Under the pieces are notes generated by a model that had not been told where the DNA came from, ran no database searches, and was given only the letters and a program-made list of their open reading frames with translations. Shown here piece by piece: positions 2,528 through 54,491 of a DNA stretch of 64,000 bases. The stretch's first letter is position 1. Each line of letters begins with the position of its first letter. The DNA comes from Terriglobia bacterium (lineage in GTDB: Bacteria; Acidobacteriota; Terriglobia; JAIQFV01). The position numbers and the translations under genes are program-made. The stretch is from positions 60,162-124,161 of the forward strand of contig JAIQFV010000009.1 in assembly GCA_020073085.1 (NCBI GenBank), given 5' to 3'.

Positions 2528-4900
2528 ATGGGAACTCTGTTCCAAGACCTCCGTTACGGGCTTCGAATGTTTTCCAAGAATCGGGGCTTCACCCTTGTGG
2601 CGGTCTTCACCCTGGCGCTGGGCATCGGCGCTAACACAGCGATCTTCAGCGTGGTGAACGCCGTGCTCTTGCGTCGGTTGCCATATCCGGACCCTGACAG
2701 AATCGTCACCATCAACGACCTGGGTTACCTGGACCGTCTCTCAGCATCCAATTCCGATCATTTGAGTTGGAAGGACCACGTTCAGTCGTTTGAAAGTGTG
2801 GCATCGTATCAAGTCGGCGAAGTGAACCTGACGGGAGGGGACGAGCCGGAACGAGTGCTGACTGCGCAGGTGACGCGCGATTTCTTTCGTGTCCTCGGGG
2901 TGAGGGCCTCCCTGGGCCGGGATTTTTCTTCCGAACCCACCGGCGGCGCGCCGGACATCGTGCTCAGCGATGGATTGTGGCGACGCCAATATGGAGCGGA
3001 CCCCAATCTTATCGGGAAGTCGGTGATACTCAATGCCAGGGTAGTCACGGTGCGGGGTATCATGCCGCCGCGGGTAGAGTTCCCAGAAGGAGTCAATGCC
3101 TGGGTCCTCCCCGGAACGGGCAACGACACGATCATCCGACAAGTCATACTCCCTCGCCCGATTGCCCGGCTCAAACGAACGTTGTCTCTGGCCCAGGCGC
3201 AAGCTGAAATGGACGCGATCACAGCACGGGCACAGGCCGACGATCCGAGCCTAAAGACCAAGTCTGGAACCCTGCTGACCCCCTTGCAGGTCAGCTTGGC
3301 GCGCGGCAGTCGGACTGCGCTGCTCGTTTTGTTGGGAGCAGTCGGATTTGTGCTGTTGATCGCTTGTGCCAACCTCGCCAATCTACTGCTTGCCCGTGGG
3401 GCCCAACGAACCCGGGAGTTTGCCATTCGAATTGCCCTCGGCGCCAGCCGCCTTCAGTTGATCAGGCAATTGCTCACGGAGAGCGTTTTGCTTTCTCTGG
3501 CAGGGGGAGTACTGGGTGTGTTCATGGCGGAGTGGGGCGTCACTCTCATGCTGTCGTTCCTTCCCATCGACCTGCCCAGGATAAATCCTATTGAGATCGA
3601 TGGCTGGGTGCTGGGGGCAACGGCGTTGCTCGCGGTGGCGGTCGGGCTCTTATTCGGGCTGGCTCCATCGATCATTGCCTCCAAGCCTGACCTCACTCAA
3701 TGTCTGAAGGAAGGCTCACAATCCCCCGCAAGCCGCCCGCGTCGGCGGCTCCAGGGCGCCCTTCTGGTCTCTGAGGTGGGGCTGGCATTCGTTCTGCTGA
3801 TCGGGGCGGGGCTGATGATCCGGACCATGCTGCGTCTGCTCGGGGTCGATCCGGGTTTTCAGGCAAGACGGGTTCTGACGCTGGACATTTCACTGCCTAC
3901 TTCGAAATATATCCACCCCTCTCAGATCAGTTCTTATTACAAGCAAGTGCTCATCCGGATTGAAGCCCTGCCCGCAGTACTCTCTGCTGGGGCGGTGACC
4001 CATCTCCCTCTGGCCGGCGGCGATGACGCTCTCTTTCCAATCCGCCCGGAAGGACGTTCCGGACCGATCGAAGCTTATGCCCCCTATCGCACTGTGACTC
4101 CGGCTTATTTTTCAACCTTGGAAATTCCACTGCTGCGAGGCCGTTTCTTCAGCGCCCAGGATGCTCAAAGCGAAACGAAGCGCGCGATCGTGAACGATGC
4201 CCTGGCACGCCGCTTATGGCCGGGCGAGGATCCGATTGGAAAACATATTAAACTCATTGACGAATACGAAGTTGTCGGAGAGGTCGGGGCGGTCAGAGAT
4301 TACGACCTTCAAGATTCCGGGGGGCCATTGTTGTATGTCTCAATGCAGCAAAGCCCGTCACCTGCGATGAGCCTTGTCATTCGGACTTCAGGTGATCCTA
4401 CCCCACTGATTTCGACCATCCGGGGCCAAGTTTTGGCAGTCGATAAGGATCAGCCCGTGTCGAAAATCACGACGATGGATCGTGTCATTCTCAACTCCAT
4501 CTCGTCGCAGCGATCACACATGCTTTTGTTGACCTTTTTTGCGGCGCTGGCCCTTGTCCTCGCAGCCGTGGGTGTCTATGGGCTCGTTGCCTACCAGGTG
4601 GCGCAGCGCACCCATGAACTTGGCGTTCGTCGGGCGCTCGGCGCGCTGCCAGGGGATGTGCTATGGCTCGTGGTCCGCGAAGGGGTGACGCGGGTGGCGA
4701 TAGGAGTCCTCCTTGGCTTCGCTGTCGCGCTGGGTCTGAGCCGCGTCATCGCCAATTTCTTGTTTGGGGTGACGCCGACCGATCCTCTGACCTTCATCTT
4801 CGTCTCCCTCGTGCTGATTGCGGCGGCGCTCGTCGCCTGCTACGTCCCGGCTCACCGGGCGACGAAGGTCGATCCGGCGATGGCGCTGAGGTACGAGTAG
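2528..4900 (+). CDS. ABC transporter permease with a duplicated FtsX domain, MacB-like (ADOP family)
   Basis: 790 aa. The N-terminus reads [20 protein letters not shown] followed by a TM helix. There are two FtsX 4-TM blocks ([14 protein letters not shown]... and [20 protein letters not shown]...) and the C-terminus ends [16 protein letters not shown]. Confidence 0.85.
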
Positions 4901-20188: not shown

Positions 20189-22694
<2,506 letters not shown>

Positions 22695-22696
<2 letters not shown>

Positions 22697-22902
22697 GTGT
22701 CGGGTGTCGGCAAGCAGCCGTCAGCATTCAGCTATCAGCCATCAGGTGAAATTGGATTCATATGATTGGACTCAACGAGCTGTTCTCGTCTTTTGACATC
22801 TTTCACTCTAATCATAGCTGCCTGCTGATAGCTGATCGCTAACGGCTAATCACTGACAACTGAGAACTGACAACTGCTTGCTGACACCTGGCACCCGACA
22901 CC
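22695..22902. repeat. Composite nested palindrome with G-class outer arms, C-class inner arms and one Q-class right arm, carrying a micro-ORF
   Basis: From the outside in: gtgtcgggtgtcgg then cagccgtcagcattcagctatcagccatcagg, then the core, then ctgatagctgatcgctaacggctaatcactg, then gacaactgagaactgacaactg, and finally ctgacacctggcacccgacacc. Confidence 0.6.
22735..22815 (-). CDS. Candidate micro-ORF, family A (MIRVKDVKRREQLVESNHMNPISPDG, 26 aa)
   Basis: 81 nt, exactly the same length as the copies at 26109-26189 and 25450-25530. The differences between copies are mostly synonymous or conservative (I/V, R/K, ccg/cca/cct Pro). Confidence 0.4.
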   Translation of the reverse strand: MIRVKDVKRREQLVESNHMNPISPDG

Positions 22903-22916
22903 TTCTGGAGGTTAAG

Positions 22917-25352
22917 ATGGAAACCATATTCCAGGATCTTCGCTACGGCTTCCGGATGCTGCTGAAGAATCCCGGCTTCACCGCTGTGGGCATTTTGACG
23001 CTGGCGCTTGGGATTGGCGCCAACACGGCAATCTTCAGTGTCGCGGATGCATTCCTGCTGAAGCCGCTTTCGATCCCCAACGAAAATCGCCTGGTGGTCG
23101 CTCTTGAAGTGGGGCCGAATCAGAGAGGCGATGATACCTCCAGTGTCTCTCCTGCCAACTTTGAGGACTGGAAGAGGCAGGCCAAAGCCTACGAAGCCAT
23201 GGCCGCTTATGATTGGGCGAATGTCAATCTGACCGGTCAGGGGGAGCCCGAGAAGGTCCAGGGATTCGAAGTCACCTCAAATTTCTTCGGGGTCGTGGGT
23301 ATCCAGCCCACTCTGGGCCGGGTTTTCCTTCCCGAGGAGGAAAACCGCGGACATGAACAGGTGGTGATTCTCAGTCATGGCCTGTGGCAACGCCGGTATG
23401 CTTCAGACGCCAACATTGTTGGTAAGAACGTGACGGTTGACGGAAGCACCTTTGAGGTCGTCGGAGTCATGCCCGCGGGGTTCAACTTCCCCACCACCGC
23501 GGAGTTGTGGATGCCGCTCGCACTGGACTCAGCGGCCCGCAGCGTTCGAAACTCACACTACCTGTTTGCCCTAGGTCTGCTCAAACCCGGGATGTCCACC
23601 TCCTCCGCACGAGCCGAATTGAAGACGCTTGCAGCGCAGTTGGCCCAGGCTTACCCGACCACCAACAAGGGTTGGTCAGTTCGTGTCACGTCCATGCGGG
23701 ATTTTGTGACCCAGGACTTAACGCGCCAGTACACCCTGATGTCCGTGGTGGCAGTCGCCTTTGTGCTCCTGATCGCCTGTGCCAACGTCGCCAATCTCCA
23801 GTTCGCCCGGGCCACGAGCCGCCAGAGAGAGATGGCCGTGCGGGTGTCCCTGGGCGCAGGCCGCTGGCGGATCATGCGGCAGCTCTTGACAGAAAGCATT
23901 GCGGTGTCCTTGCTGGGAGCGGCACTCAGCTTGCTTTGGGCCCAATGGGCCATCGAACTTATCCTGGCACACATGCCTCCGGAGACCGCCAAATTTATCC
24001 CCGCCTGGAATCATATCCGCCTGGATTACCGGGCCTTCTTATACACTTTGACCCTGGCCCTGCTGACCGGGATCCTCTCCGGGTTGATCCCTGCTTTTCA
24101 GAGCTCAAAGCCGGACCTGAACGAAGCCCTAAAGGAAGGCGGGCGCAGTGCATCGGCCGGCCAATCGAAACATCGTCTGCGAAGTTTCCTGGTCATGGCT
24201 GAAGTGGCGTTGGCCCTGATTCTGTTGGTGGGATCCGGATTGATGGTGAAGAGCTTTAGAGCCCTGCTGAATCTGAACCAGGGACTTGACCCGAACAATG
24301 TCCTCACCCTCCGCGTCAATCTCCCCCCGGGCAAGTACAAGACGCCGCCGCAAAGGGCGGCCTTCTATGACCAGGTGCTGCAGAATCTGAAAATGATCCC
24401 CGGATTCGAAGCTGCTGCCACTGCAACCAATATCCCCTATGGGGATTATGGGAGCAACGCGCTCATCAGCGTGGAGGGCAAGCCCTCAGTGAATTCCTCG
24501 GACCTCCGCTCGGCCACGAACCAGGTCATTAGCCCCGACTATTTTCGAATGATGCACATTCCGCTGCGAGCAGGGCGCGAGCTCACCGGCCAGGACGGGA
24601 AAGATTCTCCACCCGTGGCGGTGGTGAGCGAGTTGCTGGCGCGCCGGAACTGGCCCAATCAAGACCCGATCGGCAAACGAGTGAAGTTGGGGCTCGAAAA
24701 CAGCAGCTACCCCTGGATGACCGTGGTGGGCGTGGTCGGCGACGTCAAATATGACTGGAGCGAGCGGGATCCGAAACCCGCCCTCTATCATCCATTTCAA
24801 CAAGCTCCCTCGCTGAACTCTTACGTGGCGATCCGCTCCCAGGGTGATCCCAGGCAGTTCATCTCGGCGGTGCGAGACGCGATTGCCCGGGTCGATCCCC
24901 AACAACCCCTCTCCGACATTAAAACGTTGGACAAGGTGATCTCAGATTCCACGGTCGGCATTGCCTATGTTGCCGTCATCATGAGCGTCCTGGCAGTCAT
25001 CGCGTTGATTCTTTCGACCGTGGGCGTCTTCGGGGTGGTGTCTTATCAGGTGACGGAGCGAATCCATGAAATCGGAATCCGCATGGCCCTCGGCGCCAAC
25101 CCGCGCGATGTGCTGGGGATGGTTGTTGCCCGCGGAGCCTGGTTAACATTCGTCGGCTTGGGAGTTGGACTCGTTCTCTCGATCGGCCTGGCGCGCCTGT
25201 TGGCCAGCCTGATCTTTGGAATCGAGGCGATGGATTGGCTCACCTTCGGAAGTGTTTCTGTGACACTCGCCCTGGCCGCCCTGCTGGCCAGTTATCTCCC
25301 CGCTCGGCGCGCCACCCGGGTGGATCCGGTGGTCGCGCTGCGGCATGAATGA
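22917..25352 (+). CDS. ABC transporter permease, duplicated FtsX (ADOP family)
   Basis: Starts at the METIFQDLRYGFRMLLKNPGFT methionine. The upstream in-frame Met at 22878 lies inside the repeat. The C-terminus ends PARRATRVDPVVALRHE. Confidence 0.9.
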   Translation: METIFQDLRYGFRMLLKNPGFTAVGILTLALGIGANTAIFSVADAFLLKPLSIPNENRLVVALEVGPNQRGDDTSSVSPANFEDWKRQAKAYEAMAAYDWANVNLTGQGEPEKVQGFEVTSNFFGVVGIQPTLGRVFLPEEENRGHEQVVILSHGLWQRRYASDANIVGKNVTVDGSTFEVVGVMPAGFNFPTTAELWMPLALDSAARSVRNSHYLFALGLLKPGMSTSSARAELKTLAAQLAQAYPTTNKGWSVRVTSMRDFVTQDLTRQYTLMSVVAVAFVLLIACANVANLQFARATSRQREMAVRVSLGAGRWRIMRQLLTESIAVSLLGAALSLLWAQWAIELILAHMPPETAKFIPAWNHIRLDYRAFLYTLTLALLTGILSGLIPAFQSSKPDLNEALKEGGRSASAGQSKHRLRSFLVMAEVALALILLVGSGLMVKSFRALLNLNQGLDPNNVLTLRVNLPPGKYKTPPQRAAFYDQVLQNLKMIPGFEAAATATNIPYGDYGSNALISVEGKPSVNSSDLRSATNQVISPDYFRMMHIPLRAGRELTGQDGKDSPPVAVVSELLARRNWPNQDPIGKRVKLGLENSSYPWMTVVGVVGDVKYDWSERDPKPALYHPFQQAPSLNSYVAIRSQGDPRQFISAVRDAIARVDPQQPLSDIKTLDKVISDSTVGIAYVAVIMSVLAVIALILSTVGVFGVVSYQVTERIHEIGIRMALGANPRDVLGMVVARGAWLTFVGLGVGLVLSIGLARLLASLIFGIEAMDWLTFGSVSVTLALAALLASYLPARRATRVDPVVALRHE

Positions 25353-25593
25353 CAGTTGCCAGCAAGCAGTTGCCAGTTGTCAGTTCTCAGTTCTCAGTTG
25401 ACAATCGCAAGAGGTTAGTGCTCAGCTATCAGTTTTCTGCAATCAGCGATCAGCCTTCAGCTGAAATAGGATTCAATGGACCGGGAGTAATGAAACATTC
25501 GAATCTCTTGATATGTTTGACCTCAATCATAGCTGACTGCTGAGAGCTGATCGCTGACGGCTGGTTGCTGGCAACTGACAACTGGCAACTATC
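25351..25593. repeat. Composite nested palindrome with Q-class outer arms and C-class inner arms, carrying a micro-ORF
   Basis: The outer arms are cagttgccagcaagcagttgccagttgtcagttctcagttctcagttg ... ggttgctggcaactgacaactggcaact. The inner arms are cagctatcag..cagcgatcagccttcagctg ... agctgactgctgagagctgatcgctgacgg. Confidence 0.6.
25450..25530 (-). CDS. Candidate micro-ORF, family A (MIEVKHIKRFECFITPGPLNPISAEG, 26 aa)
   Basis: 81 nt. The peptide is conserved with the copies at 26109 and 22815(-) through synonymous and conservative codon changes. Confidence 0.4.
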   Translation of the reverse strand: MIEVKHIKRFECFITPGPLNPISAEG

Positions 25594-26023: not shown

Positions 26024-26244
26024 TGTCAGTTGTCAGTTGCCAGAAATAAGTTGCCAGGTCTCACTTGCCATCAAGGAGCTGTCAGCGATCGGCCATCAGC
26101 AGTCAGCTATGATTAGAGTGAGACACATCAAACAATATGAGGACTTCATTGATTCCAGTCACTTGAATCCGATTCCAGCTTATGGCTGATAGCTGAATGC
26201 TGACAGCTCTTTACTGGCAACTGACAACTGAGAACTGACAACTG
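26024..26244. repeat. Composite nested palindrome with Q-class outer arms and C-class inner arms, carrying a micro-ORF
   Basis: The outer arms are tgtcagttgtcagttgccag..gttgccag ... ctggcaactgacaactgagaactgacaactg. The inner arms are gctgtcagcgatcggccatcagcagtcagct ... ggctgatagctgaatgctgacagc. Confidence 0.6.
26109..26189 (+). CDS. Candidate micro-ORF, family A (MIRVRHIKQYEDFIDSSHLNPIPAYG, 26 aa)
   Basis: The start codon is the last heptad of the left C-arm (cagctATG). The stop TGA lies inside the right arm (ggcTGAtagctg). Confidence 0.4.
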   Translation: MIRVRHIKQYEDFIDSSHLNPIPAYG

Positions 26245-26269: not shown

Positions 26270-26938
26270 ATGATGATCAAACTCGTTGATTTGGAGAAGT
26301 TCTACGCTCATGGTGTTTCAAAGACCTTTGTGCTGCGGCGCGTGAGTTTTGATGTCCAGGAGGGAGAGTTCGTATCGATTATGGGCCCGTCGGGTGCAGG
26401 CAAATCCACGGTGCTCCATATCCTGGGGATGTACGACAGCGACTGGAGCGGCGAGTTCTATTTCCTCGACCAGCCGATTCACAAACTCGACAGGAAGAAA
26501 CGGGCGGAATTCAACAAGAAGTATGTCGGCTTCGTTTTTCAAAGCTACCACCTGCTGGACAACCTGACGGTCTATGAAAACCTCGAGATCCCCCTCTCGT
26601 ACCGGGACGTCAAGAAGAGTCAGCGAGAGAGCATTGTGTGCGATGTCCTGGATCGATTTCAAATTGTGGGCAAGAAGGATCTCTTTCCAAACCAGCTCTC
26701 CGGGGGACAGCAGCAGTTGGTGGCCGTCGCCCGAGCCGTGATCGCCAACCCCAAAGTCATTCTCGCCGACGAACCCACGGGGAACCTGCACTCCAGCCAG
26801 GGCGAGGAGATCATGGAGCTCTTCAAGAAGCTGAACGCCGAGGGGGCCACCATCATACAGGTCACTCATTCCGACAAGAATGCTTCTTACGGCAGCCGCA
26901 TCATCAAGCTCCGCGACGGATGGGTCGTGAATGATTAG
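26270..26938 (+). CDS. ABC transporter ATP-binding protein, MacB/LolD type
   Basis: Contains a Walker A (GPSGAGKSTVLHILG), the signature LSGGQQQLVAVARAV and a Walker B ([11 protein letters not shown]). Confidence 0.9.
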   Translation: MMIKLVDLEKFYAHGVSKTFVLRRVSFDVQEGEFVSIMGPSGAGKSTVLHILGMYDSDWSGEFYFLDQPIHKLDRKKRAEFNKKYVGFVFQSYHLLDNLTVYENLEIPLSYRDVKKSQRESIVCDVLDRFQIVGKKDLFPNQLSGGQQQLVAVARAVIANPKVILADEPTGNLHSSQGEEIMELFKKLNAEGATIIQVTHSDKNASYGSRIIKLRDGWVVND

Positions 26939-26949
26939 CGTTCCTGCCC

Positions 26950-27385
26950 CGGGTGCCACAGGCATCATGCTTGGGTGCCGCAGGCATCGTGCTCTTTACG
27001 ATGCCTGCGCCAGGTTCCCGATAAGAACACTGGCTGTTCCCGCAACGTCCCTGAAACGACAGATGGGGTGCCGCAGGTATCGTGTTCTTTACGATGCCTG
27101 CGCCAGGTTCCCGATGAGATCACGGGCTGTTCCCGCAACGTCCCTGAAACGACAGATGGGTGCCGCAAGTATCGTGCTCTTTACGATGCCTGCGCCAGGT
27201 TCCCGATGAGATCACGGGCCGTTCCCGCAACGTCCCTGAAACGACAGATGGGTGCCGCAGGCATCATGCTCTTTACGATGCCTGCGCCAGGTTCCCGATG
27301 AGATCACTGGCTGTTCCCGCAACGTCCCTGAAACGACAGATGGGGTGCCGCGGGCATCGTGCTCTTTACGATGCCTGCGCTGGAA
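26950..27385. repeat. Tandem direct repeat with a 92-bp unit, about 4.6 copies, each holding an internal 11-bp hairpin
   Basis: The unit is ggtgccgcaggcatcgtgctctttacgatgcctgcgccaggttcccgatgagatcacgggctgttcccgcaacgtccctgaaacgacagatgg. Copies differ by only a few SNPs. Each has the stem gcaggcatcgt / acgatgcctgc. Confidence 0.85.
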
Positions 27386-27524
27386 CCCTGTTCTAGCACG
27401 CCCTGATGGCCTCGCCCCGATCCATCGGGGCGGGGGCCTTTACGAGCGGATCGAAGAGATTGAGCTCTGAGCCTCAGCAGTCTTTTCATTCTTCAAATGT
27501 CTTGATGTTCGGACCCTGCCGGTT

Positions 27525-27917
27525 TTATGCTCCCGGCATGCAATTCTTCAAATACTCTTTTATTCTCTCCTTGTCCTCAATTTCCTGATCCCCTTTGAAA
27601 TACATCTCGATAAACTCGACTTTTAAGATTTCCCGGTAAAACGCGTAAATCACTCTGAGACCGCTCTTTGAACCGCGCCCTTTTAATGCTCTGCAGGCAA
27701 ATTTCTTCAGCTTGTAAATCTCAACTGCCTCAGTGCCGAATCCTTGGACTCGAAAGACACTTTGGTTGTCAATGTCCTTGAGATGGTAAAGCTCGATGGC
27801 GTCCCGCTTCGCGGTCTGCAAGTCAGACTCGAGGGTTCTGAATCTCTTGAGTAATTTCCTGAAGTCCTTTGTGAAGGAAGCCGTCTCGCAGTAGTCAATC
27901 CTCGTCGGAGGTTCCAT
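27525..27917 (-). CDS. RelE/ParE-fold toxin candidate, partner of the Panacea-domain antitoxin
   Basis: The C-terminal region reads GLRVIYAFYREILKVEFIEMYFKGDQE, which resembles the RelE core (yRiiYrvd..v.vl.ighRkd). It overlaps the upstream antitoxin stop by 23 nt. The start is taken as the internal Met (MEPPTRIDYCETASF...). Confidence 0.55.
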   Translation of the reverse strand: MEPPTRIDYCETASFTKDFRKLLKRFRTLESDLQTAKRDAIELYHLKDIDNQSVFRVQGFGTEAVEIYKLKKFACRALKGRGSKSGLRVIYAFYREILKVEFIEMYFKGDQEIEDKERIKEYLKNCMPGA

Positions 27918-28683
27918 AGTCACGGACTGAAGTGTCAGCAGTTCGATAAAATACCGACTCGTAATCCAACTTTTTTCCTGATTGGGCGCTAATCCAGGGG
28001 ACATCTTTGTGGGAGAGATCAGAGAGAGCCGTGGCTGTCAGATCCGAAAGGCGCCGCATTTCCCAGTCAATATGCTCCTTTTCCTGGCCGTTTAGAATAC
28101 TCAAATCGGGCACTGTCGCCGGATTGACCAGGTACTTTGTCTGGGGGTATTGATAAAATTTACTCTTGACCGGTTCCACATCGCCTTTCTTCACGAGTTC
28201 GTCAATCAGCTTATCAAAGAGAAGCGGCGTAGGGCCATGTTGGTTCTTCAGGTAGACCAAACCCATTAATTGCTCTTCATGTTTCTCGTAATAATCAAAA
28301 TCAATGAAATAGAGCAGCTTGTACAGGGCGGTCATACCAATGTTCGGCTTGCCACCGACTTCTTTGAGGATATAGAGCAGGACCTGCTTGAATTTGTCCA
28401 TCCTCTCCTGCGGGACACTGATTCTGAACTCTTCTCTTCGCTTTCTTGGCTGAATCTTACCTTTCTCAACTCTTACGGTGACATGAGGTTCCTCTTCCCG
28501 TATGAAACTTTCAAATGGGATGCCAAAAACCTCCGCCAGTTTCCTTGCCTCCGACAGATTCAACTCCCGCTTACCTTGCTCAATCTGGACATATGTCGGT
28601 CGCGACATTCTGACTTCTGACGCCAAATATTCCTGCGTCAGCTTGCGCTTCTCACGCAATTTTCGAATAAATTCTGAGAGCAT
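27895..28683 (-). CDS. Antitoxin candidate with an N-terminal HTH-XRE domain and a C-terminal DUF4065 (Panacea) domain
   Basis: The N-terminus has LREKRKLTQEYLASEVRMSRPTYVQIEQGKRELNLSEARKLAEVFGI, a Cro/C1-type HTH. The C-terminus has KLLYFIDFDYYEKHEEQLMGLVYLKNQHGPTP, typical of DUF4065. Confidence 0.65.
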   Translation of the reverse strand: MLSEFIRKLREKRKLTQEYLASEVRMSRPTYVQIEQGKRELNLSEARKLAEVFGIPFESFIREEEPHVTVRVEKGKIQPRKRREEFRISVPQERMDKFKQVLLYILKEVGGKPNIGMTALYKLLYFIDFDYYEKHEEQLMGLVYLKNQHGPTPLLFDKLIDELVKKGDVEPVKSKFYQYPQTKYLVNPATVPDLSILNGQEKEHIDWEMRRLSDLTATALSDLSHKDVPWISAQSGKKLDYESVFYRTADTSVRDYGTSDED

Positions 28684-28746
28684 AATTGTTCACCTGCCTA
28701 CTATCTGAAGTCCCACGCCAGCTCCGTCTAATTCTCAACTGTTGCA

Positions 28747-28775
28747 ATTATATTCTGTGTCAATATATTTATCAA
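28747..28775 (-). promoter_or_regulatory. Sigma-70-like promoter for the antitoxin-toxin operon
   Basis: On the minus strand: TTGATA, then 17 nt, then TATAAT. It lies about 60 nt upstream of the antitoxin ATG in an AT-rich leader. Confidence 0.45.
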
Positions 28776-28880
28776 TTATAATGTAAAGAATACGGACAGT
28801 CGATCTTGCCTGTGACAGCGCAAAATCATACCCCCGTGATAACGCAAATGTCCCCCATCCCCCATCCCTGAATGGGATGC

Positions 28881-28918
28881 CTTCAAAAGCCCAGGGTTGC
28901 GTTCTGTGCAACCCTGGG
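28881..28918 (-). terminator. Rho-independent terminator candidate
   Basis: The stem cccagggttgc / gcaaccctggg has a 7-nt loop. On the minus strand it is followed by CTTTTGAAGG, directly downstream of the DUF433 gene end. Confidence 0.5.
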
Positions 28919-28980
28919 TACCGGAGCCTTTATTAATTTAAATTAACAGAGAACAATGGGATCAAGCTGCTCGGAGGTGG

Positions 28981-29746
28981 GGGAACTCGTAGCGTAGCGC
29001 TTCTTGGATTTCCGACTCTGCCCTGCCATAGTCTTCCGCTAGTACTTCAATCGAGTCGCCGGCATGGAATCGTTCTGCTATGACAGCTGTGGAAATACCC
29101 GTGCCAACGAGGGTTTACCAAAAGAAATCATGGGGTCAATCACCACGATCTTGGGGTCCTCGGAGAGTTTCCCAAGTCTCAATTTTCTCGTGAAGGGATA
29201 GAGGCGTTGGGCAAGGCCGGCCTCGTCACGCTCCACACGTCTGAGATAAGCCTTGATGATCTCCCTCATGGCAAACTGGCCTTTTTGGGAAACGTTGATG
29301 AGACGGTCGGATTCCTGGATGAACAGATTTAAGCCATCCGTTTGAAACCACGGCTCAGCCAACGGATGCTCATATTTGGATTTTTCCATCAGGTATTCGA
29401 TAGCAGACCTGACGTTCTTCAGAGGAACCCGATGGATTTGACGGATCGCATCCAAAACATGCGCTTCTACAAGGTTTATAAACGAGAGCAGGGGAAGAGC
29501 TTTATCTGGCAATGATAATACTGGTTTAAAATGCTTCCTTCCCTTCCGAGTGGGATAGTATCTGCCTCCCACCCAGGGACGGAGTGTTGCCAAAGGGATT
29601 CCCAAATAATGACCTGCTTCGGCAGTCCCGTAGGACGGGATCTCACGGGGATCCAGGCCGTCGTAGATGGCAAAATTCCTTGCTTTTGAAATGGATCCTG
29701 CCATCGGTCGCCACCCCCCGAAGAGACTTCTGCTACAGAGCCGCAA
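28981..29746 (-). pseudogene. DUF433-domain protein gene carrying a -1 frameshift in the DUF433 motif
   Basis: Frame 0 reads ...DPMISFGKPSLARVFPQLS* with a stop at 29078. The neighbouring frame continues (x)LVGTGISTAVIAERFHAGDSIEVLAEDYGRAESEIQEALRYEF to 28981. That matches the DUF433 consensus GKPvIrGTRI.V..vl...a.G.s.eeIledYP.Lt.edi.aAL.Y. A 1-nt deletion is inferred near 29096-29100. Confidence 0.55.
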
Positions 29747-30011
29747 GCGTTACAGTCGATTTCGAGCGCAGATTATCCAATCTGTAGGATTCTGGCATAT
29801 CCACAGGTCTTTCACAGGCGAATGTCCTGTGAATTCCACTCTTATGCACCAAGAATGATTGATGGAGTGTGAACCCAATTGAATATTCCGCCAATCTTTA
29901 TGCTGGGAATTGTCGAATGTCGCAGCCTGACCCCAGTTGTTCTGCAATCTTGGCAAATGCTTTGACGAGGAGCCCCAATAACCTGCTTTCCTCCTGAGGC
30001 GGCGGTGACCC

Positions 30012-30243
30012 AACTCCGTAGGAGTGGCATAGTTATAGACCGGCCTGCTTTCTCTTCCGCTTCGGTTGAACCCCGTCAGGGGTGACATCTGAGCTGCTAT
30101 GCTCATCCACGAAGAGAGATCCATTCTCAAATCTGGGGGGAGGAGGGCTGGTTCGCAGCCCCTATGCCACCCCTGACGGGGTTCAACCCAGAATGAAGAG
30201 AAGCAGTCGGGGAAGGCTATAAAGATACCACTCCTACGGAGTT
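30012..30243. repeat. Large palindromic element (two ~75-bp inverted arms around an ~83-bp core); MITE-like or structured RNA
   Basis: Arm 1 is aactccgtaggagtgg...ggttgaaccccgtcaggggtg. Arm 2 is its reverse complement at about 85% identity (cacccctgacggggttcaacc...ccactcctacggagtt). Confidence 0.6.
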
Positions 30244-34928: not shown

Positions 34929-35155
34929 AGTTGTCAGTTCTCAGTTGTCAGTGAGGAGCTGCCACACTCATTTGATTCTATTTACGGCCGCTGTAATAGA
35001 ACCAACGTCATAAAAACCATGACTCTTCTTGCGCGTTTTTCAAAGCTGATGGCTGAAAGCTGACAGGCTGAAGTTCAACTCTAACATCTCGCAACTGACA
35101 ACTGAGAACTGGCAACTGGGAACTGAGAACTGAATTCTGGCAACTTCAGTCTAGA
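34929..35155. repeat. Heptad-armed palindromic element, Q class
   Basis: The arms are gttgtcagttctcagttgtcagtg ... caactgacaactgagaactggcaactgggaactgagaactg. The right arm ends 5 nt before the ADOP-fragment start. Confidence 0.6.
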
Positions 35156-54241: not shown

Positions 54242-54246
54242 AGAGC

Positions 54247-54465
54247 AGTTGTCAGTTCTCAGTTGCCAGTTGCCAGTTGCCAGAAAACAGTTGCCAGTTC
54301 TCAGTGGCCAGTTGCCAGTGAAAACCGTTTATTCCAATGGTCTTTTTTGTCGCAGATGTGTGCACAGCTGTTTCGCAGATACCCTCGATTGGGATGTGAA
54401 TCCAAATTTGATGAAAATCGCGAATCCCTTGTCATCCACTGACAACTGAGAACTGACAACTGGCT
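54247..54465. repeat. Heptad-armed palindromic element, Q class, carrying a family-B micro-ORF
   Basis: The left arm is a CAGTTGC array repeated nine times or more (cagttgtcagttctcagttgccagttgccagttgccag...). The right arm is ctgacaactgagaactgacaactgg. The core is homologous to the 58950-59135 element. Confidence 0.6.
54301..54435 (-). CDS. Candidate micro-ORF, family B (MTRDSRFSSNLDSHPNRGYLRNSCAHICDKKDHWNKRFSLATGH, 44 aa)
   Basis: It shares an in-frame peptide at about 60% identity with the minus-strand ORF starting at 59094 (MTPDFRFSPDSDTHADRGHLRNSRARACNKR...). Confidence 0.35.
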   Translation of the reverse strand: MTRDSRFSSNLDSHPNRGYLRNSCAHICDKKDHWNKRFSLATGH

Positions 54466-54491
54466 ACTGCTTTCTGACAGCTGCTTCTTTC

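Follow-up and report, generated by a model that had tools for sequence, protein, structure and literature searches.

What kind of system is encoded by two overlapping minus-strand genes in a low-GC stretch of a Terriglobia bacterium (Acidobacteriota)? The pair was studied within a window of 64,000 nucleotides (nt), the whole stretch of DNA analysed here (assembly GCA_020073085.1, contig JAIQFV010000009.1, positions 60,162-124,161), and all coordinates below are those of the window. A first-pass annotation had proposed an antitoxin combining a helix-turn-helix (HTH) domain with a Panacea (DUF4065) domain, followed by an overlapping toxin of RelE fold, and the open reading frame (ORF) coordinates, overlap, promoter and low-GC island that it described are all present in the sequence. 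We posit, with a probability of roughly three in four, that the cassette is a chromosomal toxin-antitoxin (TA) module of type II and of the Panacea antitoxin and toxin (PanAT) kind, in which a HigB-2-like, ribosome-dependent mRNase would be neutralised directly by the Panacea module and the operon would be repressed by its own HTH at a set of phased hexamers. The two proteins are called antitoxin and toxin throughout, after these proposed roles.

An obligate pair under purifying selection

The HTH-Panacea/toxin pairing is obligate. A full-length HTH-Panacea homologue (47-93% identity) lies directly upstream of the toxin gene in 83 of the 84 loci fetched, and in the remaining locus the contig end cuts the position at which an antitoxin gene would be visible. 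Genes flanking the cassette vary among these loci, and what is kept across the varied contexts is an adjacent, co-oriented pair, the arrangement characteristic of type II TA modules. The toxin family is large, comprising about 1000 clusters at 90% identity and at least 688 clusters at 50% identity (E up to 1e-3), and relatives were found in 207 species representatives of GTDB, with Patescibacteria predominating among those retrieved. Patescibacteria also account for about two thirds of the fetched loci, the others coming from Nitrospirota, Desulfobacterota, Pseudomonadota, Actinomycetota and further phyla.

Comparison with a second Terriglobia locus (L005) gave ratios of nonsynonymous to synonymous substitution rates (dN/dS) of 0.11 (antitoxin) and 0.15 (toxin), showing purifying selection on both genes. 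Because both are conserved across the approximately 1000 clusters and their dN/dS is low, the two ORFs are not chance occurrences. Pairwise distances among antitoxins also correlate with those among toxins (r = 0.72, Mantel p = 0.001). As a separate observation, distances among the HTH domains across 73 loci of the family track the toxin (r = 0.66) better than they track the Panacea module of the same protein (r = 0.28), which hints at shuffling of HTH and Panacea modules or at very different evolutionary rates.

The toxin gene starts at the ATG at 27917, 23 nt within the antitoxin gene, as backed by the aligned N-termini of 43 homologues. A longer reading from the ATG at 28004 (159 amino acids, aa) was ruled out since homologue N-termini line up at 27917. 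Overlaps of 11-35 nt are found in 79 of 81 related pairs, the commonest lengths being 23 nt (28 pairs) and 17 nt (26 pairs), and the 23-nt overlap in the window suggests that antitoxin and toxin genes are translationally coupled.

The guanine-cytosine (GC) content of the pair is 46.7% compared with 56.7% across the window, and a low-GC stretch from about 27450 to 30050 encloses the cassette. Proteins encoded in the window show 100% identity to entries from an Acidobacteriia/Terriglobia metagenome-assembled genome. In L005 the cassette adjoins the same ABC-ATPase gene, and the opposite flank differs. Horizontal spread fits the scattered phyla and the low GC of the cassette, which was probably acquired horizontally by this Terriglobia genome.

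Toxin fold, antitoxin modules and promoter

The first-pass annotation had seen a RelE/ParE-like core at the end of the downstream ORF, for which profile hidden Markov model (HMM) searches were the obvious check. Pfam did not bear this out directly: neither the window toxin nor its 43 relatives matched a RelE/ParE family (PF06296, PF05016, PF05015, PF09907, PF06769 and others) at E up to 10. Support came instead from more sensitive comparisons. A profile of the 44 homologues compared with all PDB sequences gave a sole credible match, HigB-2 of V. cholerae (E 0.014), covering toxin residues 77-121, a stretch that includes LRVIYAFYREILKVEFIEMYFKGDQE (residues 87-112). In this alignment HigB2 R64, Y82 and K84 correspond to toxin R88, Y106 and K108, all three of which are invariant in the 44 sequences. 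Alanine variants of R51, R64, Y82 and K84 in VcHigB2 lower its activity 170- to 3000-fold, the loss being 350- to 3000-fold for R64, Y82 and K84 (PMC5416850). Divergent relatives of the toxin approach Pfam families below threshold, namely PF06296 RelE (E 0.0065, 17 bits vs 27) and PF05016 ParE_toxin (E 0.027). A match of the toxin to CRPV_capsid (E 0.0013) was also below threshold and was judged spurious.

The AlphaFold2 (AF2) model of the toxin is confident, with a predicted local distance difference test score (pLDDT) of 87 and a predicted template modelling score (pTM) of 0.84. Its topology is beta-alpha-alpha-beta4-alpha, with N-terminal helices on an antiparallel beta-sheet as in RelE/BECR-type folds. 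Nearly all of the top 40 Foldseek matches in the PDB are RelE, HigB2, YafQ, YoeB, HigB, Cami1 or PfiT (best E 1.1e-3, probabilities up to 1.0), and a search of the viral folds in BFVD returned no named or convincing match. The RelE/ParE-like core is thus backed by the PDB profile, the fold, the aligned residues and the sub-threshold Pfam scores, and only the direct Pfam match is missing. We conclude that the toxin belongs to the RelE/ParE superfamily as a remote, HigB-2-like member beyond the present coverage of Pfam. RNase activity is much more likely for it than ParE-like activity.

A relative in an unexpected setting points in the same direction. A 3334-aa protein with filamentous-haemagglutinin repeats (P0331; L086, 1753-11757), known from a single metagenomic contig that ends 77 nt past the gene and shows no immunity gene, terminates in a domain of the toxin family (the last 116 residues, 3215-3330; E 2.9e-21) with the R, Y and K kept. 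Such an architecture is typical of contact-dependent and polymorphic toxins and, by analogy, would lend added support to toxicity.

For the antitoxin, the proposed fusion of an XRE-type HTH with DUF4065 was recovered, with both domains above the Pfam thresholds. HTH_3 (PF01381) matches residues 6-58 (E 1.8e-15, 57.1 bits vs a cutoff of 23) and SocA_Panacea (PF13274), the profile for DUF4065, matches residues 120-230 (E 1.8e-15, 58.3 bits vs a cutoff of 25.7) over positions 1-112 of its 113. AF2 places helices over residues 2-61 (pLDDT about 87), which form a five-helix HTH fold according to both the model and Foldseek, whereas the linker has a pLDDT of 32-38 and the Panacea part is modelled with moderate confidence only. 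The best PDB matches of the HTH are C.BclI, C.AhdI, DdrO and CapH (target TM-score about 0.7-0.8, root-mean-square deviation 1.4-1.7 Å). No other part of the antitoxin model was matched in the PDB, and no solved Panacea structure was retrieved. The PADLOC model 'Control_protein' also matches the antitoxin (E 7e-9), as do all its PADLOC matches, through the HTH alone. Residues 92-226 constitute a well-conserved Panacea core, and the C-terminal tail (residues 224-262) is strongly conserved (SH.DvPW, YE.VFYRT..TSVR.Y) with a pLDDT below 50.

Which part of the antitoxin acts on the toxin is addressed by a viral counterpart. The Caudoviricetes sp. vir080 record BK063677.1 (L085; Methanobacteriales host) carries at 1605-2490 a Panacea gene paired with a toxin homologue, both products being annotated 'hypothetical protein'. 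The viral Panacea protein has 170 aa (PF13274, E 5.8e-20), lacks an HTH, adjoins an integrase and aligns with residues 96-256 of the window antitoxin (40% identity, E 2e-39). The toxin homologue overlaps the Panacea gene by 8 nt, is related to the window toxin by hhalign (probability 97.3%, E 2e-11) and keeps the R, Y and K. Since this pair lacks the HTH, what always accompanies the toxin is the Panacea module with its tail, to which bacteria have added the HTH. Stand-alone Panacea proteins are reported to neutralise directly, whereas appended domains do so in some multidomain Panacea antitoxins (Ernits et al. 2023). Based on the viral stand-alone Panacea and on that work, we infer by analogy that residues 92-256 neutralise the toxin and that the HTH regulates.

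The near-consensus sigma-70 promoter that had been placed about 60 nt upstream of the antitoxin gene is there (Table 1), with the -10 box ending 63 nt ahead of the antitoxin ATG; 4 promoter-like sites were counted in the 2-kb region, compared with 1.5 +/- 1.5 in shuffles. The palindromes to which the HTH had been expected to bind were not recovered in the promoter region, where only weak inverted repeats of 9-12 nt were found, none of them convincing. The region is better described by three direct TTKACA hexamers with a 12-bp phase. We defined the array as TT[G/T]ACA, 6 nt, TTGACA, 6 nt and TT[G/T]ACA, followed shortly by the -10 box, and looked for it in the 150 nt upstream of the antitoxin gene, allowing up to 2 mismatches over its 18 positions. 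It occurs in 36 of 71 related loci from several phyla, compared with 0.1% of 3962 control windows from the same loci, and some loci have the first site in inverted orientation (TTGTCAA). The phased array resembles a conserved operator that overlaps the core promoter, and autorepression by the HTH at this site would be its natural reading.

The likely 5' limit of the transcription unit is a perfect hairpin, which we take to be the terminator of the upstream gene; homology with L005 stops at 28947. At the other end, a terminator scan of the TA operon revealed none of the canonical intrinsic type. A GC-rich hairpin with no T-run after it (GCCCCGAT-GG-ATCGGGGC) lies at 27410-27440 on the minus strand, about 85 nt past the toxin stop.

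Taken together, these features suggest the following mechanism. The single sigma-70 promoter would drive both overlapping genes, and the XRE-type HTH would dimerise and repress the operon through the three phased hexamers at the -35 box and spacer. The extended Panacea module (residues ~92-256), held beyond a variable and disordered linker, would bind the toxin and neutralise it directly. Once the antitoxin is lost or inactivated, the 130-aa toxin is predicted from its fold and from R88, Y106 and K108 to enter the ribosomal A site and cleave translating mRNA, and growth would presumably be arrested.

Table 1. Features of the cassette and its upstream region, in window coordinates
Feature	Position	Strand	Basis
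Antitoxin gene (panA type), 262 aa	27895..28683	minus	HTH_3 and SocA_Panacea profile matches
Antitoxin HTH, residues 1-61	28501-28683	minus	profile HMM, AF2
Antitoxin linker, residues 62-91, variable, predicted disordered	28411-28500	minus	conservation, AF2
Antitoxin extended Panacea module, residues 92-256	27916-28410	minus	conservation, alignment of viral stand-alone Panacea
Toxin gene, 130 aa, HigB-2-like member of the RelE/ParE superfamily	27525..27917	minus	PDB profile match, AF2/Foldseek
Putative catalytic codon R88	27654-27656	minus	alignment to HigB2
Putative catalytic codon Y106	27600-27602	minus	alignment to HigB2
Putative catalytic codon K108	27594-27596	minus	alignment to HigB2
Overlap of antitoxin stop and toxin start, 23 nt	27895..27917	minus	ORF coordinates
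Shine-Dalgarno-like AGGTGA, 6 nt 5' of antitoxin ATG	28690..28695	minus	direct reading
Sigma-70-type promoter: -35 TTGATA (28775-28770), 17-nt spacer, -10 TATAAT (28752-28747)	28747..28775	minus	11 of 12 consensus positions
Hexamer array, 12-bp phase: TTTACA (28787-28782), TTGATA (28775-28770), TTGACA (28763-28758)	28758..28787	minus	covers -35 box and spacer
Perfect hairpin, 11-bp stem, then CTTTTG	28890..28918	minus	inverted repeat I1

Alternative explanations and known systems

Several points weigh against this interpretation. The toxin passes no curated family threshold in Pfam, NCBIfam or PADLOC, its sequence resemblance to HigB-2 (E 0.014) is borderline and spans 45 residues only, and the structural matches have modest E values (best 1e-3) with TM-scores of about 0.5 for the query and 0.5-0.7 for the targets. 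HigB2 R51 falls outside the aligned stretch, and an ungapped extension places it on toxin C75, near which K69, K71, K72 and K76 are conserved. In other multidomain Panacea antitoxins, Panacea itself does not neutralise (Ernits et al. 2023), and the conserved C-terminal tail, which is predicted to be disordered, could be the true neutralising element here. TTKACA hexamers resemble -35 boxes, and the enrichment of the array may in part reflect the promoter consensus. Moreover, RelE and ParE share one fold, which by itself cannot separate an RNase from a gyrase poison.

A TA module with a ParE-type DNA gyrase poison in place of a RelE-type mRNA endonuclease would accommodate this shared fold, and two divergent relatives do align over their full length with PF05016 ParE_toxin below threshold (E 0.027 and 0.16). 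We consider it improbable, given that the sole PDB sequence match is the RNase HigB-2, that the top structural matches are RelE, HigB2, YafQ, YoeB and HigB, that the invariant residues are identical to HigB2 R64, Y82 and K84, and that the best sub-threshold score (E 0.0065) is to PF06296, the Pfam family of HigB-2. An even stronger departure would be that the product of the downstream ORF is not a toxin and instead assists an HTH transcription factor as a small partner or co-regulator, with no TA system at all, for which one may note that every row of the corresponding group in Dataset S1 of Kurata et al. 2022 (T14, below) is marked 'notest'. A RelE-type fold with conserved residues of catalytic type, invariable pairing with a domain known as an antitoxin, and the recurrence of the same domain as the C-terminal module of the giant haemagglutinin-repeat protein make this highly improbable.

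Other alternatives retain the TA pair and concern how it works. The cassette might be chiefly a phage-defence (abortive infection) module in which Panacea senses a trigger while the C-terminal tail (~225-256), and not the globular Panacea fold, folds onto the toxin and neutralises it. A sensor role has been proposed for Panacea, and neutralisation by appended elements has been shown in multidomain Panacea antitoxins (Ernits et al. 2023); the tail lies beyond the Pfam Panacea domain (120-230), is among the best-conserved parts despite a pLDDT below 50, and is kept in the viral stand-alone version. The low-GC stretch that contains the cassette is also variable, and two related genomes have different neighbours upstream of it. 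On the other hand, the toxin matches no PADLOC defence model and the antitoxin does so only through its HTH, no recognised defence genes lie near the cassette, and the low pLDDT may reflect a shallow alignment (40 sequences). Searches with the toxin (tblastn) gave no match in the plasmid collection and one match in phages (two database records), which gives no sign that the cassette is mobile or responds to a trigger. We regard this version as unlikely, and likewise a related one, a triggerable defence module in which Panacea would sense a phage or stress cue, the disordered tail would neutralise and the TTKACA sites would be a new type of operator for the family. Scarcely credible is a type VI mechanism resembling SocA, in which the antitoxin would be a proteolytic adaptor handing the toxin to ClpXP and not a stoichiometric inhibitor. 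PF13274 is named after SocA, and NCBIfam SocA_antitoxin (NF047745) weakly matches residues 114-232 (E 5.5e-4), but at 19.7 bits against a cutoff of 190 the antitoxin is not a SocA equivalog, and this mechanism was dropped as the leading explanation on that score. SocB is a DnaN-binding replication inhibitor unrelated to the RelE fold, and an HTH with an operator array suits type II autoregulation. Panacea antitoxins form complexes with their toxins, which also argues for direct neutralisation (Kurata et al. 2022).

The type II PanAT module that we favour belongs to a kind already catalogued. Kurata et al. 2022 (PNAS 119:e2102212119) gave Panacea antitoxins (PanA) their definition and drew up a catalogue of the partner toxins (PanT), recording an HTH N-terminal domain in 343 PanAs and toxins that include MqsR-like and ParE domains. 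Within their Dataset S1, the representative of group T14 (pT15) matches HigB-2 at 99.7% (HHpred), and the antitoxin gene precedes the toxin gene with a short overlap. Accessions in the group include WP_015641600.1, WP_129619247.1 and WP_067091868.1. T14 pairs with an HTH-PanA come from Candidatus Saccharibacteria, Cryosericum, Pedobacter and Flexibacter, while the Methanobacteriales PanA pairs have no N-terminal domain and an 8-nt overlap. The window cassette resembles T14 in its Panacea antitoxin, the N-terminal HTH of bacterial members, antitoxin-first order, short overlap, a toxin labelled 'hypothetical protein' and the remote match to HigB-2. The T14 taxa also agree with the Saccharibacteria loci found here and with the Methanobacteriales virus, although Terriglobia, the source of the window copy, is not among the T14 rows. 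From architecture, gene order, overlap, taxa and the HigB-2 match, the toxin family described here is very probably T14. The Panacea-RelE pairing that the first-pass annotation had singled out for testing is not new, since HTH-PanA and HigB-2-like pairs are already listed by Kurata et al. 2022; the cassette therefore adds a member to a computationally catalogued kind and is not a new system. A literature search found no published experimental test of a Panacea/HigB2-like pair.

Among characterised systems, V. cholerae HigB2-HigA2 (PDB 5JA8, 5JA9, 8A0X; Hadzi et al. 2017) supplies, with HigB2, the sole match of the toxin by sequence in the PDB and one of its best by structure. HigB2 and the window toxin share a basic K-G-x-G-rich loop and the R-(V/I)-I-Y and I-Y-x-K strands that carry R64, Y82 and K84, and both HigA2 and the window antitoxin have an XRE-type HTH. 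However, the match covers 45 residues, overall identity is about 17-21%, and the window toxin fails PF06296. The higBA2 operon is also toxin-first and HigA2 neutralises by an N-terminal disordered segment ahead of a C-terminal HTH, whereas the window pair has the antitoxin first, the HTH at the N-terminus and a Panacea module. The experimentally validated MqsR:PanA of Burkholderia fungorum (Ernits et al. 2023, PNAS 120:e2305393120) likewise combines an HTH-bearing Panacea antitoxin with a ribosome-related RNase of RelE-like fold. There, a zinc-binding domain neutralises MqsR, Panacea or HTH-Panacea alone being insufficient, and the toxin gene comes first; the window antitoxin has no zinc-binding domain, only a linker that is variable and disordered, and the two genes stand in the opposite order. 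SocA of the type VI SocAB system of Caulobacter crescentus shares PF13274 with the window antitoxin but lacks an HTH and is a ClpXP adaptor for an unrelated toxin. The restriction-modification C proteins and other small XRE repressors that best match the antitoxin HTH (C.BclI, C.AhdI, DdrO, CapH) differ in being stand-alone proteins without a Panacea module.

Taken for the window alone, the cassette is a TA module of an ordinary, accessory sort, and its wider relevance lies in the family. A large group of toxins escapes current annotation, with no Pfam, NCBIfam or PADLOC model that detects it and nearly all members labelled 'hypothetical'. The candidate catalytic residues R88, Y106 and K108 link the family to HigB-2-type RNases and offer a direct target for mutagenesis, as the operator-like array does for DNA binding. 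The occurrence of HTH-fused and stand-alone Panacea with the same toxin provides a natural comparison on whether Panacea itself neutralises, a question left by Ernits et al. 2023.

Neighbouring elements in the window

A 92-bp tandem repeat (26972-27380; 4.4 copies, 94% matches) occupies the interval between the convergent ABC-ATPase gene (26270-26938, plus strand) and the toxin gene's 3' end. A hairpin with an 11-bp stem (GCAGGCATCGT-GCTCTTT-ACGATGCCTGC) is carried by each unit, with 5 copies here and none elsewhere in the window. The corresponding interval of L005 measures only about 141 bp, indicating that the array has expanded in the window. An Rfam scan of the whole window gave no match, and the repeats are thus not a known RNA.

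Upstream of the cassette, in the same low-GC stretch, the minus-strand gene 29078-29746 matches HTH_66 (PF21321, E 3.2e-9). Its product terminates in DPMISFGKPSLARVFPQLS*, which resembles the start of a DUF433 domain cut by the stop, and the gene may be truncated. It is absent from syntenic L005, which has in its place a 254-aa ORF (WYL-like by eye) and another ORF.

Intergenic elements of about 200 nt that form imperfect palindromes are found at 22695-22900, 25350-25590 and 26024-26244, with similar pieces at 34929-35118 and 54246-54483. They are built of 7-bp units, CAGTTGN in one arm and ACTGACA in the other, and flank MacB-like permease genes (20189-22696, 22878-25352) and a DoxX-like gene. 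With related pieces also present in L005, these elements look like a dispersed repeat family.

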